A stretch of DNA of 64,000 bases from NCBI GenBank assembly GCA_963674745.2, contig CAXXDV010000003.1, positions 1,376,001-1,440,000 of the forward strand, read 5' to 3'. The position numbers and the translations under genes were made by a program. The notes beneath the pieces were generated by a model, which saw only the letters and a list, made by a program, of their open reading frames with translations, was not told the DNA's origin and did no database searches. Below, one piece after another: positions 15,436 to 35,433 of the stretch; the first letter of the stretch is position 1, and each line of letters begins with the position of its first letter. This DNA comes from Desulfosudaceae bacterium. Lineage in GTDB: Bacteria > Desulfobacterota > Desulfobacteria > Desulfobacterales > Desulfosudaceae.

Positions 15436-17517
15436 TTATTTCTCCTGCTTTTTATTTTTCATTTTTTCAATTTCTTCGGCAATGGCCGCCGGCACCTGCT
15501 GGTAAGCCATAAACTCCATGGCGAATTGTGCCTGTCCCTGGGTAGATGACCGCAGAACGTTTGAGAAACCGAACATTTCAGCCAACGGTACCTGGGCTTC
15601 AATCGCACAGGAAACGCCTTCGTCCTGGGTACCGACAATGATACCGCGCCGCTGGTTTAACAGCTTCATTACGCCGCCCTGAAATTCCGGCGGGGTTTCA
15701 ACCGTTACTTTCATTATGGGTTCATGAATAATCGGACCGGCCTTTCTGTAAGCTTCGAGAAAGGCGCCTCGGGCCGCGGCCTCAAAAGCCATTTCCGATG
15801 AATCAACCGAATGAAAGGCGCCGTCATTGATTTCAATTTTGACATCCACCACCGGGAATTCCAGCCAGGGCCCCTTATCCATGCACTTTGAAAAGCTTTT
15901 TTCACAGGATGGAATATATTGGGTCGGTATGGCACCCCCGGTTATTTTGTTTTCAAACACGAAACCCTCTCCGGGAGCGGGTTCCATGTATCCCGCGACG
16001 CGCCCGAACTGACCTGCCCCACCCGTCTGTTTTTTATGGGTATAATTAAATTCAACCCGGCGGGTGATTGTTTCCCGGTAAGCCACCTGGGGGCTACCGA
16101 TGGAGATGGCGGCGTCATATTCACGGCGCATACGTTCCAGATAGACATCCAAATGCAGTTCGCCCATACCCTGGATAATTGTTTCGTTGGTCTCTTTGTC
16201 CACAAACGTTTGAAAGGTCGGATCTTCCCTGGTAAACCGGCCGATGGCTTTGGACATGGCGATTTCCGACTTGTTGTCCTTGGGCTTGATGGCCAGAGAG
16301 ACGACCGGATCGGGCACGAAAATAGATGTCATCGTCAGCCTTAAGCCGTCACTGGTAAACGTGTCGCCGGAAGCACAATCGATCCCGAACAAAGCGCCGA
16401 TACCGCCGGCCGATATTCGTTCGATATCTTCCATCTGGTCGGCATGCATGCGTACCAGCCGGCCGATGCGGACTTTCTTACCCGTTCTGACATTGATGAC
16501 GTTATCCCCTTTTGATAAGGTTCCCTGGTATACGCGCACATAGGTCAACTGACCGTAACGCCCGTCTTCCAGTTTAAACGCCAGGGCGACGACGGGCTGG
16601 CCCGGGTCGTGGGACAGGGTCACCTGCGACTGATCATTATCCAGGTCAATAGCCGTGTTCTGTGCGTCTTCAGGGGCCGGCATATAAGTGATAATCGCGT
16701 CCAGCAGGGGTTGTACACCCTTATTTTTGTAAGCCGATCCCACGAAAACCGGCGTCAATTCCCGGGCAAAAGCGCCCTTCCGGATGGCTTCAGCCAGCAT
16801 CGCTTCGGTAATTTCCGTTTCTTCCAGAACGGCATCGGTCAGTTCTTCCGAAAAGGCTGATGCGGCATCGATCAGCACTTCACGCTGTTCTGCCGCCCGA
16901 TCTTTAAGGTCATCCGGAATTTCAGTGGTTTTGATTGTCTCACCGTTGTCACCCTCGAAATAAACGGCTTTCATGGTTACCAGGTCCACAACGCCATTAA
17001 AATCCGCTTCCAGGCCAATGGGAATCTGTATCAGCACGGCATTGTGGCCGAGTTTATCTTTGAGTTGTCGGGTTACGCGAAAGGGATCGGCCCCGCTGCG
17101 GTCACATTTATTGACAAAGGCCAGGCAGGGAACCTTATACCGCTTCATCTGCCGGTCCACGGTAATCGACTGGGATTGGACCCCGCCCACGGCGCACAAG
17201 ACCAGGACGGCACTGTCCAGGACCCGAAGTGACCGCTCAACTTCAATAGTAAAATCCACATGGCCCGGTGTGTCGATAATATTGACGCTATACCCCTTCC
17301 ACTCACAAAAGGTCGCCGCCGAGGCGATGGTAATCCCCCGCTCTTTTTCAAGCTCCATGAAATCCATGGTCGCACCCACGCCGTCTTTTCCCTTAACGTC
17401 ATGGATAGAATGAATCCGTTGGGTATAGAACAGTATCCGTTCGGTCAGTGTGGTTTTTCCCGAATCAATATGGGCGCTGATGCCGATGTTTCTCAGTTTC
17501 TGTTTTGCAGGTTTCAT
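15436..17517 (-). CDS. fusA: Elongation factor G (mtEFG1-like/spdEFG1 subtype)
   Basis: [42 protein letters not shown]; '[17 protein letters not shown]' insert typical of the mtEFG1-like clade. Confidence 0.96.
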
Positions 17518-17932: not shown

Positions 17933-19300
17933 ATGCAGCCTCTTCCTCCACATATGCATGTCTACATCATACCCTTCCAGGATAAGTTTGTCGTCTACAG
18001 ACCTTTAAAAAGATTAGCCTTTATTGCTAATTCGGCCATGGTTAATCTTATTGCGAAGATACAGGAGAAGTCACATTTTAAGGGCCTGCCGACGCACAGT
18101 GAAGCCATGGCCTTTCTCGATGCCGTCGGTTTTTTTGAACCCGACCCCCGGCCTACCCAACCGCCGCCAGTTCAAGAACCGTATTTACCGACAGTCGCGG
18201 TCGTGTTTTTAACCACTGACTGTAATTGTAAATGTGTTTATTGTTATGCTTCAGCAGGCGGTGTGCCGGCCACGGAAACGCTTCCCGTCAGGCTGGGATA
18301 TCGCACCATTGATGTTGTCTGTGAAAATGCCCTGCTGACCGGAAAAAACAAATTCACGTTGAGCTTTCATGGCGGCGGCGAACCGACGATGGCGTCGAAA
18401 AAAATGAAACAGCTGATAAATTACGCCAGAAAAAAAGAAGTACCCTGTCATGCCAATCTTACAACCAACGGTTGCTGGTCTGCGGCTGACAGGGAGTGGA
18501 TTCTGAACAATTTTGACGATGTCAGCCTCTCTTTTGACGGTTTGCGTGAAATTCAGGACCGCCAGCGTCCGCTTGCAAGCGGTAGAGGAACATATGACCT
18601 GGTTATGGCGAGCATTACGGCCATGGACCAGCGGCAGTTGTCTTATGGTATCCGAATGACGGTAACAGAGGACTCTGTCGATCAATTGCCGGAAAACATG
18701 AAATTCCTTTGCAGCAGCACGGATTGCCGGGTTTTCCAGGTGGAGCCGGCGTCCAATCATGGACGGGCAATGCAGGGCCATAATGCCCTGACCCAATACG
18801 ATCGATTTGCCCGGGCCTTTCTTAAAGCATATGATATTGCCGTGGCTGCGGGCAGGCACATGTATTATTCAGGCGCAAGGCCCTGGGTGATTACCCCACG
18901 TTTTTGTCAGGCCCCGGAAAATGCTTTGATTGTGGGTACGGACGGGTTTCTCACGGCATGTTATGAAGTGTGCAGTAGAGACCACGAACTGGCGGGGCTG
19001 TTTTGCTTTGGTGATATCTCCGAAAACGGGATAATGTCCGTGCACGAAAAGACCCGGCAGGCGCTTTTTGAAAAAATTGAACAGCGAAAAAAACAGTGCC
19101 GGGACTGCTTTTGTTTCTGGCATTGTGCCGGAGACTGCCCGTCCAAGACAATGACGGCGGATGGCAGGGGGCACCTTCGGTTTGACCGACGGTGTGATTT
19201 GAACCGCCATATTACCCGGGAACTGATTATACGCAACATTACAAACGGTAACGGTATCTGGCAGGGGGCATCAGAAGAACAGATGCTTGTCGCCTGTTAG
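17933..19300 (+). CDS. Radical SAM/SPASM peptide-maturase-like enzyme 1
   Basis: CNCKCVYC (CxxxCxxC), FHGGGEP, TTNG, SFDG; SPASM: FC...DGFLTAC...CRDCFCFWHCAGDC...C. Confidence 0.92.
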   Translation: MQPLPPHMHVYIIPFQDKFVVYRPLKRLAFIANSAMVNLIAKIQEKSHFKGLPTHSEAMAFLDAVGFFEPDPRPTQPPPVQEPYLPTVAVVFLTTDCNCKCVYCYASAGGVPATETLPVRLGYRTIDVVCENALLTGKNKFTLSFHGGGEPTMASKKMKQLINYARKKEVPCHANLTTNGCWSAADREWILNNFDDVSLSFDGLREIQDRQRPLASGRGTYDLVMASITAMDQRQLSYGIRMTVTEDSVDQLPENMKFLCSSTDCRVFQVEPASNHGRAMQGHNALTQYDRFARAFLKAYDIAVAAGRHMYYSGARPWVITPRFCQAPENALIVGTDGFLTACYEVCSRDHELAGLFCFGDISENGIMSVHEKTRQALFEKIEQRKKQCRDCFCFWHCAGDCPSKTMTADGRGHLRFDRRCDLNRHITRELIIRNITNGNGIWQGASEEQMLVAC

Positions 19301-19327
19301 GGCAGTTAACACCAAAAGGAATCGACG

Positions 19328-19780
19328 ATGGAAAAGAGAAGGAATCCTGGCGCTGCGACAACATCCCGCCGGAACTTTTTCCGTCGTTTTTTTACTGAAA
19401 CGATAAGCCTTATTGAGGAAGCCAGGGGAACCCCCCAGCTCAACCTGAATGATATCGCAGCGCTCCCGGATGAGATTTTCGGTAGTATCATTCCGGTTTT
19501 CAGTGAACATACCCGGTATCGGATTGAAGGTGATCGGCTACTCATCGTCGATGAAAAGAGCGCTATTTTCAGAAAAGCCTATCAATTTACGCCTCGAGAG
19601 CTGTATGTTTTGAATCAATTTGACGGACATAATACATTAAATTCAATTGTTTATGTAATTATAAACCAGTTTGACCAAGATGCCGAAGCAGCGTTTCAGC
19701 AGGTAAAAAATCTGTTCTGCACCATGGCCGGATACGCGGTATGCCATCCGCTGCATGAAACACCGGAGCAGCAAAAATGA
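19328..19780 (+). CDS. PqqD/RRE-like protein with an N-terminal SRRNFF extension
   Basis: C-terminal 'RLLIVDEK...YQFTPRELYVLNQFDGHNTLNSIVYVIINQFDQDAEAAFQQVKNLFCTM' fits the PqqD/RRE winged-helix pattern; SD AAGGA; ATGA overlap with the next gene. Confidence 0.7.
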   Translation: MEKRRNPGAATTSRRNFFRRFFTETISLIEEARGTPQLNLNDIAALPDEIFGSIIPVFSEHTRYRIEGDRLLIVDEKSAIFRKAYQFTPRELYVLNQFDGHNTLNSIVYVIINQFDQDAEAAFQQVKNLFCTMAGYAVCHPLHETPEQQK

Positions 19781-21162
19781 ACCGGGCAGATATTGCCGAT
19801 ATTTACGCCATTTCCTTACCAGAAGAGAAGTTTCTGCTATATTCCCCGTTAAGGGGTTTTTCCGCGCTCGTAAACCGGAAAGCCCTTGATGAATCCGCCC
19901 GGTTTGTAACGGGAAAACCATGCCGAAACAGGGGGGCGTCACCGCTTGACGCTATTTTCAATGCGCTTTCAACGCCTGCTTTACCCCCTCCATTTGAACC
20001 GGATAAGCTGCTGGCTCCTTTTTTTCTGGGTATTATTCCCACGCGGGCCTGTAACATGTCCTGCCGTTATTGCGATTTCGGGGACCAATCGCCGGGTTCG
20101 CAGTCCATGGATTTACGGACTGCTGTAGCTGCTGTGGACTGGATGGCGGACCATGTTTATCGGACAGGCCGGGATAAACTGGAAATCCACTTTTTCGGCG
20201 GAGAGCCGTTTGTCGCCCCAGATGTCGTGGACGCCGCCGTTTACCGGGCGCGGGCTGTTGCCGGGGAAAAAGGGATACCCCTTCATCTGGAAGTGTCCAC
20301 CAACGGTCTATTTGATGAGAACAGGGCCGTTTTTGTGGGGGATTACTTTAATTCAGCTGTTATTTCCCTGGATGGATTCCGGGAAACACATGACCGTCAC
20401 CGCCCCCTAGACGGGAGCAGAGGTAGTTTTGATGGTGTCGTAGAGTCAATTCGGCGGCTTTCGATGACGCCGGCAGAGGTTTGTCTGCGGTGTTGTATAT
20501 CGCATATAAACGTGGACAGGATGGAAGCGATTGCCCGGTGGTTCTGTGAAGAATTAAAACCATCTGTCGTAAACTTTGAAATCGTAAGTTCAAATTCAAA
20601 ATCAGATGCGGCGGGATTGTTTCCGCCCGACCCGTATCGTTTTGCCGGTAATTGCGTTCGGGCCTGTCGTCTTGTCCGACAATTCGGGATTCAAGCGGTT
20701 TACGCGTCGGCATCTATTGATACCGTGCGTCGAAGTTTTTGTCCCATGGGAAAGGATACCTTGATCGTTTCTCCCGATGGACGGATCAGCAGTTGTTATC
20801 TGCCGGACAGGGACTGGAAGAAAAAGGGACTGGATCTTGATGTGGGACGTCTGAGAACGGATGGTTCAATGGATATTGACATGGCTGCAATCCAGCGTCT
20901 GCGCCGGATAACCGCCGATAAGCCCGGCTGTGAAAAATGCTTTTGCAAATGGACTTGCGCCGGAGGCTGTCATGTCAGGCAATACGATCAGGCAGCTGTT
21001 TCTACAAAAAATGATTTTTGTGTTCAGACGCGCCTTATTACCGCCTGTTCTCTGCTGGACAACCTTGGATTCCGCGATCTGGCCGATTCGCTTCTGGCGG
21101 ATATGGACGCGATGGAAACTCTGGCGTTGAATCCATCGGATTATTTGGTACAATTCACATGA
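19777..21162 (+). CDS. Radical SAM/SPASM peptide-maturase-like enzyme 2
   Basis: CNMSCRYC, FFGGEPF, STNG, ISLDG; SPASM FC...PDGRISSC...CEKCFCKWTCAGGC...FC. Confidence 0.92.
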   Translation: MNRADIADIYAISLPEEKFLLYSPLRGFSALVNRKALDESARFVTGKPCRNRGASPLDAIFNALSTPALPPPFEPDKLLAPFFLGIIPTRACNMSCRYCDFGDQSPGSQSMDLRTAVAAVDWMADHVYRTGRDKLEIHFFGGEPFVAPDVVDAAVYRARAVAGEKGIPLHLEVSTNGLFDENRAVFVGDYFNSAVISLDGFRETHDRHRPLDGSRGSFDGVVESIRRLSMTPAEVCLRCCISHINVDRMEAIARWFCEELKPSVVNFEIVSSNSKSDAAGLFPPDPYRFAGNCVRACRLVRQFGIQAVYASASIDTVRRSFCPMGKDTLIVSPDGRISSCYLPDRDWKKKGLDLDVGRLRTDGSMDIDMAAIQRLRRITADKPGCEKCFCKWTCAGGCHVRQYDQAAVSTKNDFCVQTRLITACSLLDNLGFRDLADSLLADMDAMETLALNPSDYLVQFT

Positions 21163-21196
21163 TGTATGGAAATTAAACCATAACGAAAGAGGCCAT

Positions 21197-22822
21197 ATGG
21201 ATGACTCTAGAAAAGATGATCGCTTGAAGCAAGTGCCCGAGAATCCGGATGAAAAACCTGAGGTGTACGCGGTCTCAATGAAAAAAAAGAGGGTTTCATT
21301 AAGCCGTCGTGCTTTTTTGGGCAGTATCGGTACCGGCGCGCTGCTGACCGCCTGTGCTGAACTAAATCCTCAAAAAAACGGATGTGTCGACAAAACAGCC
21401 GGCCGGCCGGGGGGTGTTTCACAATTACCGTCGGAACCGGTAAAAGAAGTGTATGAGTGGTGCGAAAATTTTAATACCCATTCAAATTCCGTCAATGCCC
21501 TGGCTGTCAGCCCGAATGGCCGGATGCTGGTGTCGGGAAGCGCCGACACAACGATCAAATTATGGTCTCTCCCCGGGGGAAAGCTCCTGAAAATCTTAAA
21601 GGGGCATTCAAATGTTGTAAATACGGTAGCCGTCAGTCCGGACGGCAAGCTGCTGGCTTCCGGAAGCGGCGGTAAGACTGTCAGGCTGTGGTCTCTTAAA
21701 AATGGCCGGGGGCTGCTTTCTTTGAAAGGGCATTCAGCGTTTGTCAAGTCTGTTGCCTTCAGCCCGGATGGCCGGCTGCTGGCTTCCGGAAGCGGAGACA
21801 AAACCATTAAGTTGTGGTCTCTGCCGGAGGGGAAACTGCTGAAAACCCTGACGGGACATTCGAGTTATGTGTATGCGGTTGCCTTCAGCCCGGACGGTAA
21901 ATTTCTAATATCCGGAAGCGCTGACAAAACCATCCGGTTGTGGTCTTTGCCGGACGCAATGCTGTCACAAACCCTGACAGGGCATTCCGACTATGTCAAC
22001 TCACTGGTTGTCGGTTCGGACAGCCGGCTCCTGATATCGGGAAGCTGTGACAGAACGATTAAACTGTGGTCTTTGCCGGACGGGGGGCTGTTGCAAACCC
22101 TGGCAGGTCATTCCGGCTGGATCAATACTTTAGCGATCAGCCTGTGCGGACATCTGCTGGCGTCGGGAAGTGCTGATAAAACGGTAAGAATATGGTCCCT
22201 GCCGGAGGGTAAACCGCTTCTGGTGATGATGGGCCAGGATTTGCCGATAAAATCCGTGGTAATCAACCCGGAAGGGAATTTGTTAATATCGGCCGGTAGT
22301 GACAAAACCATTACCGTATGGACGCTTCCGGATGGATCCCCCAGTTGGTGCTTTTCCGATCCTGCCTTAACCGCGCCGCAGGAGATGAAAACCTTTCGTC
22401 AGATGGGATTTTGCACCCGGATCCTGCCCTGTGGCGCACAGATACCGCCGGGGGCTGTTTGCACTTGTAATTGTGTGGCAGCGGCCTCTATCCACAAGGG
22501 GCCTGAAACGATCTGTATTTGTGATACCATCGCCGTCCCGGCCTTCAAAACGCTGCCGGGAAATACGGTGTGTGTCTGCAACACAATTTTAGTCGGCACG
22601 GGTTGTATCCCCAAGAATCATGAACGGCACATGTCAGGGAAGTCCTGTACCTGCAATACTATTTGTACCTGTGATACGGTGTCGAGGGCCGGTCTTCCTT
22701 GTTCCCGTTATGCTGTAGGCGGCCACACAAAACAGACGACCGGAACGACTTGTACCTGCGATACCATCTGCACCTGCGATACGGTTTCAACAGGAGGCGG
22801 GCATTACTGGTATCCCACTTAA
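21197..22822 (+). CDS. Tat-lipoprotein WD40 beta-propeller with a Cys-rich repeat tail (candidate substrate of the rSAM operon)
   Basis: SRRAFL + hydrophobic stretch + LTAC lipobox (Cys53); seven 42-aa GH...W repeats; tail with 7 CxC[DN]x[IV] units ending GGGHYWYPT; SD GAGG. Confidence 0.88.
   Translation: MDDSRKDDRLKQVPENPDEKPEVYAVSMKKKRVSLSRRAFLGSIGTGALLTACAELNPQKNGCVDKTAGRPGGVSQLPSEPVKEVYEWCENFNTHSNSVNALAVSPNGRMLVSGSADTTIKLWSLPGGKLLKILKGHSNVVNTVAVSPDGKLLASGSGGKTVRLWSLKNGRGLLSLKGHSAFVKSVAFSPDGRLLASGSGDKTIKLWSLPEGKLLKTLTGHSSYVYAVAFSPDGKFLISGSADKTIRLWSLPDAMLSQTLTGHSDYVNSLVVGSDSRLLISGSCDRTIKLWSLPDGGLLQTLAGHSGWINTLAISLCGHLLASGSADKTVRIWSLPEGKPLLVMMGQDLPIKSVVINPEGNLLISAGSDKTITVWTLPDGSPSWCFSDPALTAPQEMKTFRQMGFCTRILPCGAQIPPGAVCTCNCVAAASIHKGPETICICDTIAVPAFKTLPGNTVCVCNTILVGTGCIPKNHERHMSGKSCTCNTICTCDTVSRAGLPCSRYAVGGHTKQTTGTTCTCDTICTCDTVSTGGGHYWYPT
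21479..22360 (+). repeat. Seven tandem 126-bp WD40 coding repeats
   Basis: Units such as HSxxVxxVAFSPDGxLLASGSxDKTIKLWSLPxGxLLxTLxG at 42-aa period. Confidence 0.93.
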
Positions 22823-22834
22823 GCCGGACGGCAG

Positions 22835-25672
22835 ATGAATATTTTAACTCCTGCGAATAAAAACGACATAACCGACGATTTCACGGCAGCGGACACTTTT
22901 TCTGTCGGCAATTTTATGCTTAAGGGGAAGGTCCATCCGAAACTGCCTCTGTTTGAACTGCGTTCGGGCGGTCAAAGCGTATTGTATGCGCCCGGAAAAG
23001 TTGCCGTTGTAGATTATCCGAATGCCGAAGCGATCTGCCGGGCATGGTCCGGAGACGGTGTCCTGTCTCCGGGCAGCATTTCCGGTCAGACGGCCCGATG
23101 GCTTGAAACGCATGCGGAAAATGCCCTGAAAAAATGGAAGGCTGTTACCGGCATGCCTTTCCAGCCCGAATGCCTGACCATTTACCCGGGTATTCAGTGC
23201 AACCTGAAATGTGGTTATTGTTACGCGCGGAACCGTGACGTTGATGAAACAGCGGGAAGCAGGTCAGGCCGTCCGGTTATGGCTGATTCGGTTGTGGCTT
23301 CCGCTGCCGCGATTGTAGCGAAAAACTGCGCCGACAAAGGACTTCCGTTTCATCTGGTTCTGCACGGCGGTGGAGAGCCCTCATACTACTTTGATCAGGT
23401 GCGCCGTTATACGGCGATAACCCGCCAGGCTGCCCGGCAGCTCGGGCTGGACTGGTTCGGGTATATCGCCACCAATGGGGTAATGCCTGAAAAAAATGCC
23501 CGGTGGCTGGCTGAAAATTTTACGCGGATCGGACTGTCGTGCGACGGCCCTCCAGATATTCAGGACAGGCAGCGGCCGCTTAAAACTGGCGGCAGAACCT
23601 CGCCACAGGTAAAACAGACCGCGCGTATTTTAACTGAACATGGCGCGGATATGGTTGTCCGCGCCACCCTGACACCCTGGTCTTTTTCTCGTCAGACTGA
23701 AATTGTCACCTATTTTTATGAGCATTTAAATCCATCCGCCATACGTTTTGAACCGGCTTTTCGACTTCGGGATAATGGGCATCCGGGATTCACCGCAGAC
23801 GATGCGTCAATTTTTGTCGAGCATTTTCTGGCTGCCAGGAAGACAGCAGAATCCATGGGATGCCATCTTTCCTTATCCGGTATCCGGCCCGAAGAGATCC
23901 ACGGCCCTTTTTGCGATGTCCTGCGGAATGTCCTGCGTCTGGGACCGGACGGTTCGGCTACGGCCTGTTTTCTGATATCAGATGAAACGGTACCTGTCAG
24001 TTCGCCTTTTTTGATTGGCCGGGCGGACCCGGACACGGGTGATTTTATTTTAGACACCAAAAAGATAGAGGCATTCCGGCGTTCCGTCGCCGTCATACCT
24101 GCCGAATGTGAACAATGCATCAATATCTGTCATTGCGCCCGGGGATGTCCGGACCGGTGTCCGGTTTTAACCGGGTCGCCCGTTGATCCGGAGAATAAAA
24201 ATAATAATAATTTTCTGTGCCGGTTGTATCAAAAACTGGCGCCGGCCCTCATTATGGACGCAGCGGACAGGTTGATAAACAGAGAACAAAAAAAGGCGGT
24301 GACGATACTACCCGATATCGGCATCTCCGATGAAGCCGGCCTTAACCTGAATGATCTGCCGGCTGCCGTAAACAGGGAAGAGATCAGAAAACAGTATGAC
24401 GCGGTGGGCGGTACCTATGATATTACAGCCGGCCGCTTGCCGGAGCCTGCCTGGCGGAAAAAGGGGTTTACCTTCAATGGCCCTGATGCCTGGCATTATC
24501 TGCGTCGGGTTTTACCGGATACGGATCACGCCCGACCGGTGTCTATTTATTTCCATGTCCCGTTTTGTGAACACCGGTGTGCCTTTTGTGACTGCTATGC
24601 CTTTCCCTTCGGGAAAAAAAGGTCCGTAAAAGAAGAGGCCTTTTGCCGGGCGCTTGTAGCTGAAATGCGTTTTTGGTCGGATATTTACCCGATCAGCCGA
24701 CGCCGGGTTACGACCGTCCATTTCGGCGGAGGGACCCCGGGGTGTTTGAATGCTCCTGTGTTTGATCGAATTCTGACGGAATGCCGCGATCTTTTTAAAG
24801 TCCATGAGCAGACGGAATGGGCGCTGGAAACAACCGTTTCTCACATCAGGCAGGAAGATTTGAACCGGTTGGGAAAATTGGGCTTTTCCCGGCTGCATGT
24901 TGGGGTTCAGACCTTAAATGAGGATTTAAGGCAATCCATTGGGAGAAGGACTTCAGCCAAGGATGCTGTCTTCAGGCTGAAAAAGGCCATGGGGGCAGGT
25001 TTTGTTGTTTCCGTAGATATTTTATATGGCCTCCCCGGACAGCGCTTATCGGATGTGCTGAATACCCTGTCGATCCTGATTGACATGGAGATTCACGGTC
25101 TGTCGCTTTACCGTTTCAATGTATCAAAACGGAATCGATGGTATATTAAGCGTTGCCGGGAGTTTAACCCGGATCCGCGTCGTGATTACTTGATGTTTCA
25201 GGCCGCGGAGCAAATGCTGACCAAAGCCGGTTATCGGAAAAACCATTTTGCGCATTTTGCAAAACAAGCGGATCGCAACCTGTATTTCACCTGTCCGCTG
25301 AGGGGGGAAGACCTGCTGGCCATGGGGCCGACGGCAGACGGTTTTTTCGGTAATTATCGATACCGTAACGCGGAATATGCAAGGTATATGAACCAGTTGC
25401 AAAACAAATCAGGCATGCCGGTGCTGCAAGGCTGTCTTGAGGAATCAGACCTTGAGGTCAGGGCGCGTCCGGCGATCCTCGACATTATGGGCAGCCATAT
25501 CCGGAGAAGCGTTCATGAACATCTGGGTATCGACAGTCTGATCAAGAAATGGGAAGACTGTCTGCTGATCGAAAATTTATCCGGCGGAAATGATTTTGCG
25601 TTAACACCGAACGGCTCCTGGTTTGTTAATCAAATGATTGCTGATGTTTTACATGATCTTGAAAGCAGGTGA
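22835..25672 (+). CDS. Double radical-SAM fusion: N-terminal rSAM/SPASM + C-terminal HemN/class C methyltransferase-like rSAM
   Basis: CNLKCGYC, LHGGGEP, SPASM (FC...C; CEQCINICHCARGC); second domain SIYFHVPFCEHRCAFC, TVHFGGGTP, RLHVGVQT, DILYGLPGQ. Confidence 0.9.
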   Translation: MNILTPANKNDITDDFTAADTFSVGNFMLKGKVHPKLPLFELRSGGQSVLYAPGKVAVVDYPNAEAICRAWSGDGVLSPGSISGQTARWLETHAENALKKWKAVTGMPFQPECLTIYPGIQCNLKCGYCYARNRDVDETAGSRSGRPVMADSVVASAAAIVAKNCADKGLPFHLVLHGGGEPSYYFDQVRRYTAITRQAARQLGLDWFGYIATNGVMPEKNARWLAENFTRIGLSCDGPPDIQDRQRPLKTGGRTSPQVKQTARILTEHGADMVVRATLTPWSFSRQTEIVTYFYEHLNPSAIRFEPAFRLRDNGHPGFTADDASIFVEHFLAARKTAESMGCHLSLSGIRPEEIHGPFCDVLRNVLRLGPDGSATACFLISDETVPVSSPFLIGRADPDTGDFILDTKKIEAFRRSVAVIPAECEQCINICHCARGCPDRCPVLTGSPVDPENKNNNNFLCRLYQKLAPALIMDAADRLINREQKKAVTILPDIGISDEAGLNLNDLPAAVNREEIRKQYDAVGGTYDITAGRLPEPAWRKKGFTFNGPDAWHYLRRVLPDTDHARPVSIYFHVPFCEHRCAFCDCYAFPFGKKRSVKEEAFCRALVAEMRFWSDIYPISRRRVTTVHFGGGTPGCLNAPVFDRILTECRDLFKVHEQTEWALETTVSHIRQEDLNRLGKLGFSRLHVGVQTLNEDLRQSIGRRTSAKDAVFRLKKAMGAGFVVSVDILYGLPGQRLSDVLNTLSILIDMEIHGLSLYRFNVSKRNRWYIKRCREFNPDPRRDYLMFQAAEQMLTKAGYRKNHFAHFAKQADRNLYFTCPLRGEDLLAMGPTADGFFGNYRYRNAEYARYMNQLQNKSGMPVLQGCLEESDLEVRARPAILDIMGSHIRRSVHEHLGIDSLIKKWEDCLLIENLSGGNDFALTPNGSWFVNQMIADVLHDLESR

Positions 25673-25946
25673 AGATGGTTCACTTTGATCCTGATGTCGT
25701 CTGGTCTGTTGACTGCCGCGGTTTGTCGCTGGTTCACCGTAAAACAGGTGACCGCGCTTGCCTGGTTTATCCCCAAGCCGCTTTATGGGATCTGTTGAGC
25801 AGAGAGGTGGAAATGACGAGGATCATCCGGATCATGACGGCTCTGACGGCGTTGAGGACCCGGCTGTCCGGCTATGGTGCCGCCGGACCGTCCAGGGCTG
25901 GATTGACGCGGGCTGGATGCTCGAAGACGGGGAAACCGCATCATGA
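25669..25946 (+). pseudogene. PqqD/RRE-like protein interrupted by a 1-nt frameshift near 25848 (real lesion or assembly error)
   Basis: Joining ORF 25669 (to ...IMTALT) with the -1 frame (GVEDPAVRLWCRRTVQGWIDAGWMLEDGETAS*) gives a 92-aa RRE-sized protein with a GTGA overlap upstream and an ATGA overlap downstream. Confidence 0.72.
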
Positions 25947-27940
25947 CGAATCTTTCCCTTACCTCTGAATGTAACCAGAATTGTTCATACTGCTTTGCCG
26001 GGAATATAACGGAAGTCAGCCGTTTTCCCCGCCGGGAGTATGATGGGTTCCTCGCGTTTTTGAGGCGGTCAGGGATCAAGCAGGTCCGGTTGCTGGGCGG
26101 TGAACCCACGCTTCATCCGGACTTTATTTTTTTTGTAGAAGAGGCTTTCCGTCAGGGCTTTCATGTGCTGGTATTTTCAAACGGCATGATGCCTGAAAGC
26201 GCCGTAAAATGTCTTGAAATCCTGCCCCCGGACAAGCTACTGGTTCTGGTAAATACCACCCCTTCCCGGCGTTGGAACATGAACCTACGTGGTCGCCGGA
26301 TCGAGATATTGAAACGTTTGAATCAGAGGGTAATGATCGGTTTAACCATTCACACAACGAACCCTGATATTGATTCCATCTGTTCGTATATTGAAATATT
26401 GAATTTACGCCCCGCCATCCGCCTGGGTCTGGCCCATCCCTGCCCGGACAGCACCAATCAATGGTTGCCTCCCAAGCATTATTGTCTGGTCGGACAAATC
26501 ATAGCCGATTTTATCATTCGGCACCCGGATCTGTCGATCGAGTTTGATTGCGGCTTCGTGCCCTGCATGTTCCCGGACTGGTTTTTTTCACAGTCTGTTT
26601 TCAAACCGGAGGACATCGGGCGCCGCTGCGGGCCGATACCGGACATCTTACCCGATGGCTCAGTAGTGCACTGTTTTCCGTTACGTGCCATATCGAAACT
26701 GACACTGGATCAACTGGCCTGTGCCCGGGCGGCAGGAAAAGAATTGTCGCGAATGGTTGCACCGTATCAGCATACGGGTATTTTCCCGGAATGCGGCTGC
26801 TGTGAATATCGGACGGCGGATCAGTGCTCCGGCGGTTGTATTGCGGCAGCCGGCCGGCGCTTGAGAAGTTCGTCTCAATGCTTTTCTCTGTCAATTCCGC
26901 TCAGCACATCCCTTGCGTCGGATTTTACCGGCAATGAGCCGTCCCCCGGTAACGGGACGCTGGAAGATGTGAACGATGCCAGGGTGGACAAAGATTTCAT
27001 CATTCCGTATATCGATCAGCCACCGCGTTTCTGGGAGGAAATTTATAGCGCCTTTGGCCGGTTTATCAAAAAGGTGTATTGTCCCCTGCCCGGCAGTAAA
27101 ATCGGTTCCGGGCGTCCGCCTCAACCCGATGACCATTTACATCAATTTTTATGTTCCGGTTATTTTGAGACGGATATCCTTATCAACTCGCCTTTTGTTA
27201 AAGAACCGCTGGACGATTTTACAAGCCGTGTCATCAGGGAATTGAGGCTGTTTTCGGAGAAATACCCTTTATCGGGCGTGACGATTGCCAATCGTAAGGT
27301 CGGCAGACGGATCCGGGAGGTATTTCCTGACCTGACCCTGACGGCTTCGGTGTTGATGGATGTTTACGGGCCTGATCAGATAAAACGGATGGGGGATACT
27401 TTTGACTGCCTGGTTCCGTCCAGCAGGATTATGCGTAATATCAATGCCCTGATGCGGATCAGGCAGGCTTTTGCCGGGAAGATACGGTTGATCGCCAATG
27501 AAGCGTGCCTTCCGGGCTGCCCCTACCGTGATCAGCATTTTTACGAGATGAATTCCGACCGTTCGTACCCTGAATCGCTCTGTACCGACCTTCTCGAGGA
27601 AAAACCATGGCTGCGCTTAACCGGTGCCTGGGTTCTTCCGCAGCACCTGTCTTTTTTCGATACCATCTATGATGAACTCAAACTGGCGGGCCGCGTTACC
27701 TTAAAAGATCCGGCAAAGTATATGAAGGTGCTGAATGCTTATATTACCGGGACGCCGCTGACCCCGGATGAAATCGGCGGCGGGCCGGCGTCTGTCCTAG
27801 ACCCTGTTTATATTGATTCTGATTTTTATTTTTCCACGTTAAATTGTGATAAACAATGCCATCAATGCGATATCTGCAGCACATATTATGAAATGCAGAC
27901 CAATCCGGTAGAAAATGAAACAGAAAAAGTGCCTGTATGA
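25943..27940 (+). CDS. Radical SAM/SPASM fused to a peptidase-U32-like Fe-S domain
   Basis: CNQNCSYC, LLGGEPTLHP, SPASM-like C...C...CGCC...CSGGC; from ~aa 352 a U32-like barrel: GVTIAN, LTASV, IANEACLPGCPYRDQH, C, LKLAGR, terminal CDKQCHQCDIC. Confidence 0.8.
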   Translation: MTNLSLTSECNQNCSYCFAGNITEVSRFPRREYDGFLAFLRRSGIKQVRLLGGEPTLHPDFIFFVEEAFRQGFHVLVFSNGMMPESAVKCLEILPPDKLLVLVNTTPSRRWNMNLRGRRIEILKRLNQRVMIGLTIHTTNPDIDSICSYIEILNLRPAIRLGLAHPCPDSTNQWLPPKHYCLVGQIIADFIIRHPDLSIEFDCGFVPCMFPDWFFSQSVFKPEDIGRRCGPIPDILPDGSVVHCFPLRAISKLTLDQLACARAAGKELSRMVAPYQHTGIFPECGCCEYRTADQCSGGCIAAAGRRLRSSSQCFSLSIPLSTSLASDFTGNEPSPGNGTLEDVNDARVDKDFIIPYIDQPPRFWEEIYSAFGRFIKKVYCPLPGSKIGSGRPPQPDDHLHQFLCSGYFETDILINSPFVKEPLDDFTSRVIRELRLFSEKYPLSGVTIANRKVGRRIREVFPDLTLTASVLMDVYGPDQIKRMGDTFDCLVPSSRIMRNINALMRIRQAFAGKIRLIANEACLPGCPYRDQHFYEMNSDRSYPESLCTDLLEEKPWLRLTGAWVLPQHLSFFDTIYDELKLAGRVTLKDPAKYMKVLNAYITGTPLTPDEIGGGPASVLDPVYIDSDFYFSTLNCDKQCHQCDICSTYYEMQTNPVENETEKVPV

Positions 27941-31920: not shown

Positions 31921-34900
31921 GTGACAAAAAACAATAAATTCAAGATGCTTATAATATTTCTGCTGGTCTTCCCCCTTTTTCCCGTCGACGTCACCGCCAA
32001 TGCGGATAAATATGAACTGGTCCTGCGTCAAACCGCTTCCGACTTAGGATTTGATCCGGCTGTTAACCGGGAGGGAACGGAAGATGAGATTTTTTACTCT
32101 ATTACCGCTTACAACCCGGACATGATGGGGCTGCAATTCAAGGTCATGGTCTATAAAAGCAAAAAGATCAAACAGGGTGTCTTGGAAATGGGCAATGCCT
32201 TTATGCAAACAGCCAAAGCCCAGGCCGGTTCACTGCCCTCAAAATCCTCGTCCACACGGATCTTTGACGGAATCAGTGTAGAACAGGTGTCGTGGGCGCC
32301 CCACAACTACAGCGGCCCAGTTACCGCCGGCGCCACGCTTAAAACCACCACCCTGACGGTAGAGCCCGATCCACTGATTGTTTTTTCGGTCCTGGTCCAG
32401 GGCGATCGCAATCCCGACCCCTATATGTCGGCCTTGATCAAGAATCTTAAAAATGCCGGGCTGTTCGGACCGGTGGATGAAGGTGTGGCCTTTACGGTCC
32501 AGGTCCGAAAAGACGGCTGGCTGCCTGTTGATCGGCCGGTGGCCACAGGCAATGCCTCCCCTTCCTCCATCACATTGACAGGGCGCGTACTGGACCCGGC
32601 CGGGCAACCCGTCACCGGCGCGCGACTGCACATCCCGTCGCTAAACCTCTCGACTGACACCAACATGGATGGTTCGTTCCGGCTTTATACGGCAACCCAA
32701 GGGAAAGACCCTTTTACACTGGATTTCAATATTACCATGCAGCAGCCCGTATCCGGCACACGGGTCACCATAACCGGGCCGGATTTTCAAACATTGCCGG
32801 TGCCTTATAACACACAGTTAACCATTTCCGCGACTGACCGGAACGGCCAACCAATCTCAAAGGCGGCGGTCGGCCTGAACTGGACCATTCCCGGTTTTGT
32901 CAGGGCCCCGGTAGCATCCACCATGCTCGACACCCTGGGGCAAGCGAAAATCCCCCTGGAAATCCATAGGCCGGGCCCCATAAACAGCAATGTTTTGGCC
33001 GCCGAAATGCTGACCGTCAAAGTGGAAGCCGTCGTCAAACCCCGGGACGGCGGCGAAACCGCCCGGGGCATCTATACCTCCCCGCTTAACCTGGCCCTGA
33101 TTTCAGGCTTGACTGTGGGGCCGGACATGCAGCCTCGAGAGGAAGCCGAAGCGCCCCGCATAACAGGGGTATCACAGAAAATGTGTGTCGACCGCTGGAA
33201 AGATGAAACCGGACGGTTCGGCATTTTGGTCCACCCGCTTCATCCGGTTTCTTTGAAACCCATGGACAACTGGGAGTTGTTCTGGAACGAGAACAACCAC
33301 CTGCCGCTCAATTATCCAATGGCAACAAGCCCCCAACCCGGTCAGGTTCTTGAAGTGGGAAAAATTGACGTGCTGACGCCCCAAGAACACATCCAACGAT
33401 TGACCGGCGTTTTAAAAGAATTCTGCTCTGCCATGGCGCTGACACCGACAGAACAGTCCGGCATTCAGAACGCCATTCTCAGGCTGGTGTTTCAGCCCGG
33501 TTCTTCAAATGATGTTCCCGTTTACCTGGACAACTATACGGATGATTCCGGAATTATCACCACACCCGGAAAAGCAGAAGCATACTGGGGCAACAACCTG
33601 AACGTGGGCGATGACCCGGCTTACCAGATCATTCCCCATGAGCTGGGTCATTTTGTCCACCATCATCTCGTCGAAAAGCACGCCTTCATCCATATGTGCT
33701 ACAACAAGCTGTCCACCGGAGATCATGAGACATGGAAAGTGCCGTCCACGGCACGATTCAAGGCCCCCTATCTGAGTTTTTCCGAAAACACCGCCGATTT
33801 CTTCGCCCTGGTATTCCGGAATTTCTGGGCGTCCCGTCACCCGGAAATCAAAGAGTCCCCTTATTTTATGCGGCCGGGGTACATGCCGGAGTTTAAAACA
33901 GACGAAAAGGCCATGGCGGTGGTCGGTTCCGGTACTCCCGGTTACCTGGTCGAAGGCGTACAAACACGTTTTCTGCGGGCGTTTTACGGCAACGCGGTAA
34001 ACACCCGGCCGGCGGTTGTCTTCAACGACTATCTCAACACCATGCTGCTTCACCTCGACCGGCAAAGCGGCTGGGCGGGCACCTTGACCAACCGGCCGGC
34101 ACGGACCATCTCCCAGTGGGTGCAGACCAAACAAAGTTTACCCAGAGGGCTCGGTTCTGCTGATGTCAGCGCCCTGGCAGGCCGGTACCGCCTGTTTGAG
34201 GGTGCCGAACCGGAACCGACCGCGACACCCGAATTCGGCAAAAAAGAGTCCCGCATCATCATCTATGGCCATAAAGAAGACTTCAGCGCTTTTCCGGTTG
34301 TGACGATTCCATTCAACCAGATTATCCAGGTCACGGCCGGGTTGATCAATATCGATCTCTCGGACGCGACCGTCACGCGCACACTGGTGGTTAAGGCCCC
34401 GGCCCGGATAAAACTGTACTCCCGCACCAGAATAAAGGTTTACATGGGAATGGTCGGTGCGGATTTTCCGATAGAAATCGAAACGCCGGGCGGCATTATC
34501 AAACCAACAGGCACCGTGGTCCAGGTTCATGTCGATGATCAGGAACAGACCGACGTGAGCACCCTGCACGGGAGTGTCCAGGTCACGTCAAACACCGGCC
34601 GGATTACATCTCTGGGTGCCGGGCAATCGATTCAAATGACCGCCGATGGCGCTTTTTCCGCTGTTAATGCCTTCAACCCGGAAGCGCGTCTGTCTGCGTT
34701 CCTGCCCGACCTGGAATTGCCCCCCCTCCCCCGGCAGGGATCCGGATCTTCGCCGGGATTAATCCTGAATCAAATTCAGGAGCGCATCAAAGACTTTCCC
34801 TGGACGAACCCGGACCGGGTCAGGGAAAGGATAAAAAACCTTCCCCGGTGGGCACTGCCGGCTGCGGCCCTGCTGGCCGCCATCCTGGGAGCCATTTCGC

Positions 34901-35433
34901 TATGGCTGATTCGACGCCTGCTGATTGCACTGGTTGTCGGGCCCGTAATGACCATCATCGTGGCCGGTATCGGCTGGGCCATTATTACCGGCAACGCCCT
35001 GGACATCACAGCCTTTTTCCGGTTCCTGCTGTCTCCGTTATCGGCCTGGCAGAACGCCGGGCAGGGATTACCGGCCGTGGCCTGGCTGGCCGGCGGCCTG
35101 GCTGGCGGAATGATTGTGGGCAGACGGATTCAAAGTCTTGTTGCCGGGCTGCTGATCCCGATCATTCCCTGGCTGCTGATTCAGCAACCGCTTAAAATTT
35201 CTGACATCGGCAGTGGTCAGGAAGTCCAAATTCTGAAGAAAGCTGTCATGGCCGCCCCCAAAGACCTGATGGTGGTACTGGCAGCAACGGCCCTGGGCGC
35301 ATTTCTGGGGGGACTGATACTTCCCCGCCGTAAGAAAGCAAAAAGATCCCGAAGGCGCAGCAGCCGGCATCATTATGATGACAACTATGATGATGACCTG
35401 GATGATCCGGGCGGTTTTGACGGAGATGATTAG
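31921..35433 (+). CDS. Large exported, membrane-anchored protein: Ig/carboxypeptidase-regulatory-like domains, HExxH zincin-like region, FecR-like domain, multi-TM C-terminus
   Basis: Signal peptide; 'LTGRVLDPAGQPVTGARL'; IIPHELGHFVHH and SFSENTADFFA; 'IETPGGIIKPTGTVVQV...VSTLHGSVQV'; ~5 hydrophobic segments; basic then acidic tail. Confidence 0.7.
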   Translation: MTKNNKFKMLIIFLLVFPLFPVDVTANADKYELVLRQTASDLGFDPAVNREGTEDEIFYSITAYNPDMMGLQFKVMVYKSKKIKQGVLEMGNAFMQTAKAQAGSLPSKSSSTRIFDGISVEQVSWAPHNYSGPVTAGATLKTTTLTVEPDPLIVFSVLVQGDRNPDPYMSALIKNLKNAGLFGPVDEGVAFTVQVRKDGWLPVDRPVATGNASPSSITLTGRVLDPAGQPVTGARLHIPSLNLSTDTNMDGSFRLYTATQGKDPFTLDFNITMQQPVSGTRVTITGPDFQTLPVPYNTQLTISATDRNGQPISKAAVGLNWTIPGFVRAPVASTMLDTLGQAKIPLEIHRPGPINSNVLAAEMLTVKVEAVVKPRDGGETARGIYTSPLNLALISGLTVGPDMQPREEAEAPRITGVSQKMCVDRWKDETGRFGILVHPLHPVSLKPMDNWELFWNENNHLPLNYPMATSPQPGQVLEVGKIDVLTPQEHIQRLTGVLKEFCSAMALTPTEQSGIQNAILRLVFQPGSSNDVPVYLDNYTDDSGIITTPGKAEAYWGNNLNVGDDPAYQIIPHELGHFVHHHLVEKHAFIHMCYNKLSTGDHETWKVPSTARFKAPYLSFSENTADFFALVFRNFWASRHPEIKESPYFMRPGYMPEFKTDEKAMAVVGSGTPGYLVEGVQTRFLRAFYGNAVNTRPAVVFNDYLNTMLLHLDRQSGWAGTLTNRPARTISQWVQTKQSLPRGLGSADVSALAGRYRLFEGAEPEPTATPEFGKKESRIIIYGHKEDFSAFPVVTIPFNQIIQVTAGLINIDLSDATVTRTLVVKAPARIKLYSRTRIKVYMGMVGADFPIEIETPGGIIKPTGTVVQVHVDDQEQTDVSTLHGSVQVTSNTGRITSLGAGQSIQMTADGAFSAVNAFNPEARLSAFLPDLELPPLPRQGSGSSPGLILNQIQERIKDFPWTNPDRVRERIKNLPRWALPAAALLAAILGAISLWLIRRLLIALVVGPVMTIIVAGIGWAIITGNALDITAFFRFLLSPLSAWQNAGQGLPAVAWLAGGLAGGMIVGRRIQSLVAGLLIPIIPWLLIQQPLKISDIGSGQEVQILKKAVMAAPKDLMVVLAATALGAFLGGLILPRRKKAKRSRRRSSRHHYDDNYDDDLDDPGGFDGDD

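Follow-up and report, generated by a model that had tools for sequence, protein, structure and literature searches.

What does a U32-type domain do when it is joined in one polypeptide to a radical S-adenosylmethionine (SAM) enzyme? The question is raised by a gene of a Desulfosudaceae bacterium (assembly GCA_963674745.2), which lies in the stretch of 64,000 nucleotides (nt) analysed here and called the window (contig CAXXDV010000003.1, positions 1,376,001 to 1,440,000 of the forward strand). Coordinates below are positions in this window, and residue numbers are those of the target protein. The gene, at 25943-27940 on the plus strand, is one open reading frame (ORF) of 665 amino acids (aa), as stated in a preliminary description made from the letters of the sequence, and it encodes a radical SAM/SPASM-type domain, a linker and a U32-like domain. 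The best explanation overall, which we regard as about evenly poised between right and wrong, is that the protein is a two-module maturase, whose gene cassette modifies the C-terminal tail of an exported protein. The homology, fold, conservation, gene neighbourhood and fusions presented here were computed directly, and the chemistry is wholly inferred.

The motifs listed in the preliminary description, namely CX3CX2C, a Cys region, a Ser/Pro linker, NEACLPGCPYRDQH, C547, LKLAGR and a terminal CxxxCxxCxxC, were all found (features are on the plus strand unless otherwise indicated). The N-terminal half (25943..26854, residues 1 to ~304), recognised by PF04055, invariant Cys and fold, consists of a radical SAM core, in which C10, C14 and C17 form CX3CX2C (nt 25970-25993), and a SPASM-type auxiliary Cys region at residues 202-299 (nt 26546-26839). 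It is followed by a Ser/Pro-rich interdomain linker (26855..26959, residues 305-339), which is predicted to be disordered, the predicted local distance difference test (pLDDT) falling below 50 at residues 311-313 and 319-335 of the AlphaFold2 (AF2) model of residues 1-335. The U32-like TIM barrel, delimited by AF2, the structure 5d88 and hhalign, occupies 26981..27712 (residues 347-590) and includes NEACLPGCPYRDQH (residues 519-532, nt 27497-27538), NEACx3C (C522, C526), C547 and LKLAGR (residues 579-584, nt 27677-27694). The C-terminal extension of the domain (27713..27937), defined by alignment, carries an invariant CX3CX2CX2C, here CDKQCHQCDIC (residues 635-645, nt 27845-27877; C635, C639, C642 and C645).

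Direct sequence searches with residues 340-665 returned 0 Pfam families (PF01136 of the U32 family included, E ≤ 10), 0 NCBIfam families and 0 PDB sequences. Likewise, PF01136 gave no match to the whole target protein at E ≤ 0.1, and a genome-wide search with this model found two other genes, the target not being among them. The AF2 model of the C-terminal domain (pLDDT 90.5, predicted TM-score 0.89, 40-row alignment) had as its best Foldseek match 5d88, the U32 peptidase Mk0906 of Methanopyrus kandleri, with E 2.9e-8, and the next matches were generic TIM barrels at 5.6e-5 or higher. Alignment of 5d88 with the domain by VIA-align gave Z 17.8 and a root-mean-square deviation of 3.1 Å over 219/247 residues (model residues 8-251), while the next chain reached Z 12.1 in a second look and 12.3 in a Foldseek-independent comparison with 48,161 chains. 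Mk0906 is thus the best structural match, yet the identity is 12 %, and the target has, beyond the aligned part, a C-terminal extension of 75 residues in which four Cys are invariant. A literature search for Mk0906 turned up only unrelated accession numbers.

The family profile was also aligned by hhalign with 33 canonical U32 sequences (two encoded in the same genome, 29 taken from its phylum, and UbiU and UbiV of E. coli), with a probability of 96.65 % and E 5.6e-10 over 314 columns. By this profile-profile alignment UbiU/UbiV (YhbU/YhbV of E. coli), RlhA and TrhP belong to the same superfamily as the domain. The columns conserved on both sides are V378/Y379, N415, P462, S469, C522, C547, K580, G583, R584 and Y593, so that the domain shares with UbiU/UbiV the VY, N, P-x-L-x-x-S and K-x-x-G-R elements, cluster Cys 1 and 3 and a conserved Cys in the loop that follows strand seven. 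The likeness of LKLAGR to the U32 motif KIEGR, which had been noticed by eye, is borne out by these columns: K580, G583 and R584 correspond to K, G and R, all three kept in 79/79 domains, and Glu is replaced by Ala. Relatives of the domain are numerous, with 215 proteins at E ≤ 1e-3 (query residues 340-665) and 384 cluster representatives found by phmmer in a library of 1.84 billion proteins. The distant phmmer matches are stand-alone proteins of ~330 aa, and 34 of 45 distant stand-alone homologs that were scanned do match PF01136 (E ≤ 0.01), 28 of these at or above the gathering score. Other databases give similar labels: a cluster called 'putative Peptidase family U32' appears in the ESM Atlas at 0.95, and among the 120 homologs listed two bear the JGI name 'collagenase-like PrtC family protease'. 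Because fold, profile-profile alignment, bridging homologs with PF01136 and these labels agree, the domain is almost certainly a member of the U32 superfamily by homology. The assignment, originally made from motifs only, therefore holds for fold, with 5d88 on top, and for the profile built from canonical sequences, although the PF01136 model itself does not match.

Within this superfamily the Cys residues of the domain are arranged in an unusual way. CX6CX15CX3/4C is given as common to most U32 groups (Pelosi et al., PMC6747719), and in its place the domain has CX3CX20C and the C-terminal CX3CX2CX2C. In the hhalign column mapping the first and third canonical Cys correspond to C522 and C547, the second to Arg529, with C526 three residues earlier in the same loop, and the fourth to Leu551. 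The pattern is far from accidental: C522, C526, C547, C635, C639, C642 and C645 are kept in 78-79/79 aligned domains, N519, E520, R529 and H532 in 79/79, and about 50 positions are at least 95 % conserved in these 79 domains, which come from many phyla. Many of the conserved positions are polar or aromatic (Y356, D358, W364, Y379, R391, N415, S469, Q479, R498, N519, E520, R529, Q531, H532, E535, W556, K580, R584 and Y600), and the invariant polar residues of the barrel form a set like that of an active site. Among 76 bridging stand-alone U32-like proteins of at least 280 aa, the C-terminal CX3CX2CX2C was present in 62 and NExCx3C in 43, and the canonical U32 motif in 0/76; no NCBIfam model covers this clade. 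As the non-canonical signature is common to the bridging proteins and no such model exists, the domain represents a distinct and uncurated branch of the U32 superfamily.

Seven invariant Cys would suffice to hold a single [4Fe-4S] cluster or two, of which one may have an open iron site, and on this pattern the U32-like domain is probably an iron-sulfur (Fe-S) protein. The count of seven rather than eight, split three and four, would also suit some other catalyst with a site-differentiated cluster, held by the three barrel Cys or by the radical-SAM-like CX3CX2C inside the C-terminal motif, and carrying out dehydration, sulfur transfer, non-canonical SAM cleavage or C-C/C-S coupling on the tail. 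The occurrence of the NExCx3C and CX3CX2CX2C signature in a wider stand-alone clade that lacks the canonical motif is in keeping with such a catalyst, to which we nevertheless give a small chance, since no enzyme class of this kind was matched by sequence or fold and U32 is the only specific relative.

The genome also encodes a distant stand-alone paralog of 352 aa (contig C3, 1098708-1099766; 25 % identity to the U32-like domain, E 1.5e-5), which has NEGCx3C, KICGR and the C-terminal CX3CX2CX2C and matches no Pfam or NCBIfam model. It follows a WYL/WCX/HTH regulator, with an amidase adjoining, and ~5 kb upstream are genes for a radical SAM/SPASM protein and an AAA ATPase; its neighbourhood (WYL regulator, amidase) gave no functional lead.

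The other half of the protein was more easily recognised. In Pfam the whole protein matched Radical_SAM (PF04055, 46 bits, cut-off 29.5) and Fer4_12, both at the N-terminus, and nothing else, and in NCBIfam many radical SAM families matched the N-terminus weakly, all far below their cut-offs. A search of PDB sequences with the whole-length target profile found radical SAM chains only, with positions 8-305 aligned to anSME. The AF2 model of residues 1-335 (pLDDT 88.8) is nearest in Foldseek to SkfB (E 2.0e-9), SuiB, anSME, CteB and PqqE, the matches to SkfB, SuiB and anSME lying between E 2e-9 and 7e-9. The CX3CX2C motif and the partial TIM-barrel core of the radical SAM superfamily are both present, and in an alignment of 36 sequences C203, C208, C229, C244, C284, C287, C295 and C299 of the auxiliary region are invariant. 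Among the matches listed, several homologs are named SPASM proteins by JGI. On account of the eight invariant Cys, the SPASM enzymes as nearest folds and the anSME profile alignment, the N-terminal half is a radical SAM enzyme of the peptide type, probably with an auxiliary domain like SPASM. The radical SAM part of the earlier label stands; for the SPASM part, Cys and fold speak in favour and the Pfam SPASM model (PF13186) does not match the target at E ≤ 0.1.

Loci were collected by an alignment-based scan of genome contigs, one genome per species, in which 89 relatives were found and 80 loci kept. Components were counted by BLAST of the seven cassette proteins of the window against all locus ORFs and by all-against-all clustering. 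The loci span Acidobacteriota, Chloroflexota, Bacteroidales, Planctomycetota, Desulfobacterota, Coriobacteriia, Verrucomicrobiota, Armatimonadota, KSB1 and others. The U32-like domain, detected in 77/80 of them, is free-standing in 36 loci, where the two halves of the target are separate genes, and fused to the radical SAM half, as in the window, in 32. Three loci (L022, L069 and L031) combine the window-type fusion with a HemN-like domain or a whole SPASM-HemN enzyme, one (L056) has the U32-like domain fused to a HemN-like domain alone, and at six the N-terminal extent is ambiguous, probably because of crude ORF calls. The same modules thus occur in several arrangements, one being the fusion of the window, and the U32-like barrel forms a separable unit that has more than one working partner among the radical SAM domains.

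These fusions to two different radical SAM partners, together with the seven invariant Cys, could also be explained by a domain that has no chemistry of its own and serves the radical SAM and HemN-like domains as an Fe-S electron-transfer or docking module, or else holds the tail. Such a role has, in our view, a minor though appreciable chance. A TIM barrel of 300 residues with about 50 near-invariant positions, many of them polar and lining the motifs shared with U32, goes far beyond the needs of a wire, and auxiliary clusters are already carried by the SPASM domains. Since the domain occurs free-standing, fused to radical SAM and fused to HemN, and since its near-invariant positions and seven Cys are those of a catalyst and not of a linker, it is very likely a separable catalytic module of the tail-maturation system.

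The tail on which this system would act was recognised in a neighbouring gene (21197..22822), which encodes a WD40 propeller protein of 541 aa (WD40 match of 269 bits). Comparison of tails showed that its C-terminal part (nt 22382-22819) is composed of C-x-C-[DN]-x-[VI] repeats and ends in HYWYPT (nt 22802-22819); near the N-terminus it has SRRAFL, which looks like a twin-arginine translocation (Tat) signal by eye only. At least one neighbouring ORF ending in YW[YHRF][PYQ]x was present in 62/80 loci, giving 91 tails in total, in which Tyr at -5 is conserved in 90, Trp at -4 in 90 and Pro at -2 in 89. In 40 aligned tails Tyr, Trp and Pro are invariant and the consensus end HYWYPN is almost invariant. 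The region ahead of the tail is variable: it may be a WD40 propeller, a short leader of 135-206 aa that bears a signal, or some other domain. Most of the 18 loci without a tail (16/18) are shorter than 17 kb, and several of the loci have two to four tail-bearing genes. In the genome of the window, YWYPN followed by a stop gave 0 matches because the tail there ends in T. The relaxed YWYPx-stop matched the WD40 gene only, and as the reversed control pattern also matched once per strand, the relaxed pattern is noisy. A complex prediction of the U32-like domain with a 45-residue tail scored 0.04 against a mark of 0.32, which is evidence neither way. The WD40 protein is the probable substrate of the cassette.

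The nature of these tail-bearing proteins also bears on the proposal that the domain is a true U32 peptidase, trimming the substrate at a leader, a signal or the C-terminus. The U32 family was named for a reported collagenase activity, a protease is frequent in pathways of the type that yields ribosomally made peptides with post-translational modifications (RiPPs), and the JGI protease name on two homologs points the same way. The substrates, however, are whole folded proteins or proteins with Tat-type signals, with the conserved motif at the extreme C-terminus, and the catalytic residues of U32 'peptidases' are not known. With no leader to remove, seven invariant Cys and the Fe-S precedent in U32, the peptidase reading was set aside as having a very slight chance of being right.

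The gene under study is the last of a cassette that extends from 17933 to 27940 and is flanked by a probable elongation factor G (EF-G) paralog and a NUDIX gene on the opposite strand. The cassette comprises four SPASM-type radical SAM domains, one HemN-like domain, two PqqD-like proteins, a tail-bearing exported substrate and the U32-like domain. It begins with radical SAM/SPASM enzyme 1 (17933..19300; Pfam, NCBIfam), whose best matches are PapB-like and SCIFF-maturase-like and below cut-off. Next come a PqqD-like protein of 150 aa (19328..19780) with a weak NCBIfam match to ScmD (E 3.4e-4, 20.8 bits, cut-off 100), and radical SAM/SPASM enzyme 2 (19777..21162; Pfam, NCBIfam), whose best match is PapB-like and far below cut-off. 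The WD40 gene is followed by a fusion of 945 aa (22835..25672; Pfam, NCBIfam), in which a SPASM-type radical SAM domain (~residues 109-450) precedes a HemN/ChuW-like radical SAM domain (~555-940). The best NCBIfam match of this fusion is ChuW/HutW, with 186 bits against a cut-off of 400, and the fusion may carry out on the same tail a reaction of the class C methyltransferase type. An ORF of 99 aa (25669..25968) overlaps the start of the target by 26 nt and was assigned by family comparison to a small PqqD-like family of the RiPP recognition element (RRE) type. PqqD PF05402 is matched at E ≤ 0.1 by eight of the 21 members of that family, of which three reach the cut-off or exceed it, while the ORF of the window itself has no match to this model.

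Most of these components are conserved around the U32-like domain. The cluster of radical SAM/SPASM enzymes 1 and 2 occurs in 72/80 loci with 154 ORFs (partner radical SAM genes in 72-75 loci), the small-ORF family directly upstream of the target gene in 60/80, WD40 proteins in 50/80 and homologs of the 150-aa PqqD-like protein in 44-46/80. The radical SAM half of the target is a gene of its own in 37/80 loci, the SPASM and HemN-like enzyme is fused in 25/80 and the HemN-like half stands alone in 19/80. Within the phylum of the window the cassette is rare: among 401 sampled genomes radical SAM enzyme 2 was found at E ≤ 1e-60 in its own genome only. A metagenome scan anchored on this enzyme yielded two short loci, too few to inform on cassettes without U32. 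No description of the HYWYPN tail or of a cassette of U32 and radical SAM genes was found in the literature, in which most subscription journals were outside coverage. The cassette is widespread and apparently undescribed.

Some further genes were noted at these loci. An extra conserved gene of ~350-430 aa with a CNLNCSFCC-type radical SAM motif is present in 24/80 loci, mostly those with split genes (for example L046:14216-15376, L027:10899-12101 and L049:12477-13634), and is absent from the window cassette. Directly upstream of the cassette, the flanking gene for an EF-G-like GTPase (15436-17517, minus strand) is probably an EF-G paralog. Downstream, at 31921-35433, an ORF of 1170 aa has a weak CarboxypepD_reg-like match, HELGH (of the HExxH type) by eye and a hydrophobic, charged C-terminal region.

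How the cassette might work is suggested by two known systems. The first is that of UbiU and UbiV, each of which is described as holding one [4Fe-4S] cluster through four conserved Cys and as required for O2-independent hydroxylation (PMC6747719). Genetically they are the best characterised of the U32 proteins. Their hydroxylase role is known from genetics and labelling, and they take the place of flavin mono-oxygenases in hydroxylating aromatic compounds without O2 (PMC6747719, PMC10990095), with prephenate as the oxygen donor (PMC10990095). Unlike UbiU/UbiV, the domain has no PF01136 match and has the altered Cys pattern described above; radical SAM enzymes are its fusion partners or are encoded next to it, and a Pfam scan of the cassette proteins found no UbiT-like SCP2 partner. 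Its probable substrate is also a protein tail and not one of the quinone precursors or RNA bases reported as U32 substrates (PMC10990095).

The second system is that of quinohemoprotein amine dehydrogenase (QHNDH), in which the radical SAM enzyme QhpD and the hydroxylase QhpG act on a single thioether-stapled protein as members of a ternary complex (PMC7876137). The likeness lies in a radical SAM/SPASM enzyme and a hydroxylase acting jointly in the cytoplasm on one Cys-rich protein, QhpC, that is later exported; the QHNDH substrate has Cys-Asp/Glu motifs and a target Trp (PMC7876137). The cassette is not a QHNDH system: with the QhpD model TIGR03906, radical SAM enzymes 1 and 2 reach 73-79 bits, far below its cut-off of 453, and 0/7 cassette proteins match a flavoprotein in Pfam. 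QhpG is an O2-dependent flavoprotein, in place of which the cassette has the U32-like, putatively Fe-S, domain. Moreover, the QHNDH system has one radical SAM domain and the cassette four or five, the tail of the cassette substrate ends in HYWYPN and is joined to a WD40 or another domain, and the cassette lacks a heme subunit, a protease and an ABC exporter.

A looser resemblance is to ranthipeptide and sactipeptide systems (PapB, SCIFF, CefB and CXXX-repeat). PapB is the best NCBIfam match of radical SAM enzymes 1 and 2 (E 1e-31 to 8e-34), all of whose matches to PapB-type families are far below cut-offs, and these systems likewise combine a Cys-repeat substrate containing Asp/Asn with PqqD-like recognition proteins. 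Among those described, we know of none that has a U32-like or HemN-like partner or a C-terminal HYWYPN.

Taken as a two-module maturase, the target would act in the cytoplasm, where the cassette would modify the tail before the WD40 protein is exported. Module 1 (residues 1 to ~304), with the substrate probably held by the small upstream PqqD-like protein, would abstract a hydrogen atom from the tail and give a cross-link or an oxidised residue. By analogy with UbiU/UbiV and with QhpD/QhpG, module 2 (residues 340-665) would perform an O2-independent two-electron oxidation or hydroxylation of the tail, most likely at the invariant Tyr-Trp pair, and prephenate may supply the oxygen atom. Of the original proposal that the domain oxidises a protein substrate, the substrate is supported by context, that is by the conservation of the cassette, the PqqD-like partner and the neighbours that carry tails, whereas the oxidation is what we infer. 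That the U32-like domain acts on the tail as a hydroxylase or oxidase is accordingly put forward as tentative, with somewhat less than an even prospect of being correct.

Several points weigh against this assignment of chemistry. PF01136 fails on the domain at E ≤ 10, and the precomputed PF01136 label is present in 0/120 among the homologs listed. The canonical four-Cys cluster motif of U32 is not retained, and therefore the transfer of cluster type and chemistry from UbiU/UbiV is uncertain. The four other radical SAM domains of the cassette could explain all the chemistry, and nothing in these results links the U32-like domain to the Tyr-Trp motif over the Cys repeats, nor to prephenate. Bryobacterales, the source of some loci, are not known to be strict anaerobes. 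Finally, an in vitro hydroxylase assay is described as still awaited for any U32 protein (PMC10990095).

A more specific form of the hydroxylase proposal, which we hold with little confidence, is that the domain is an O2-independent peptidyl-tryptophan/tyrosine hydroxylase, an anaerobic counterpart of QhpG. Together with the radical SAM cross-linkers it would form an aromatic cofactor, of quinone type or otherwise oxygenated, and the thioether-stapled, Tat-exported tail on which this is formed would be fused to, or partnered with, a propeller. Dehydrogenases with tryptophan tryptophylquinone or cysteine tryptophylquinone are composed of a seven-bladed propeller subunit and a small cross-linked quinone subunit, which makes the quinone-cofactor proposal attractive. 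If the proposal were true, the U32 family would gain in this tail its first protein substrate, the cassette would be an O2-free route to protein-derived quinone-like cofactors, and the fused radical SAM domain might provide the strong oxidant that is lacking in the proposed U32 mechanism.

To our knowledge, if water-dependent molybdenum enzymes are set aside, no candidates other than U32 proteins are known for the O2-free hydroxylation of aromatic rings. The system described here bears on the route by which strict anaerobes obtain hydroxylated aromatic residues, and 6- and 7-hydroxy-tryptophans have been reported in methyl-coenzyme M reductases (PMC11951088). As a compact, co-expressible system of enzyme and genetically encoded substrate, it would make U32 chemistry assayable by mass spectrometry. 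With a clade of U32 proteins hard-wired by fusion to radical SAM enzymes and tied to a protein tail of defined type, the family would come to include protein modification.

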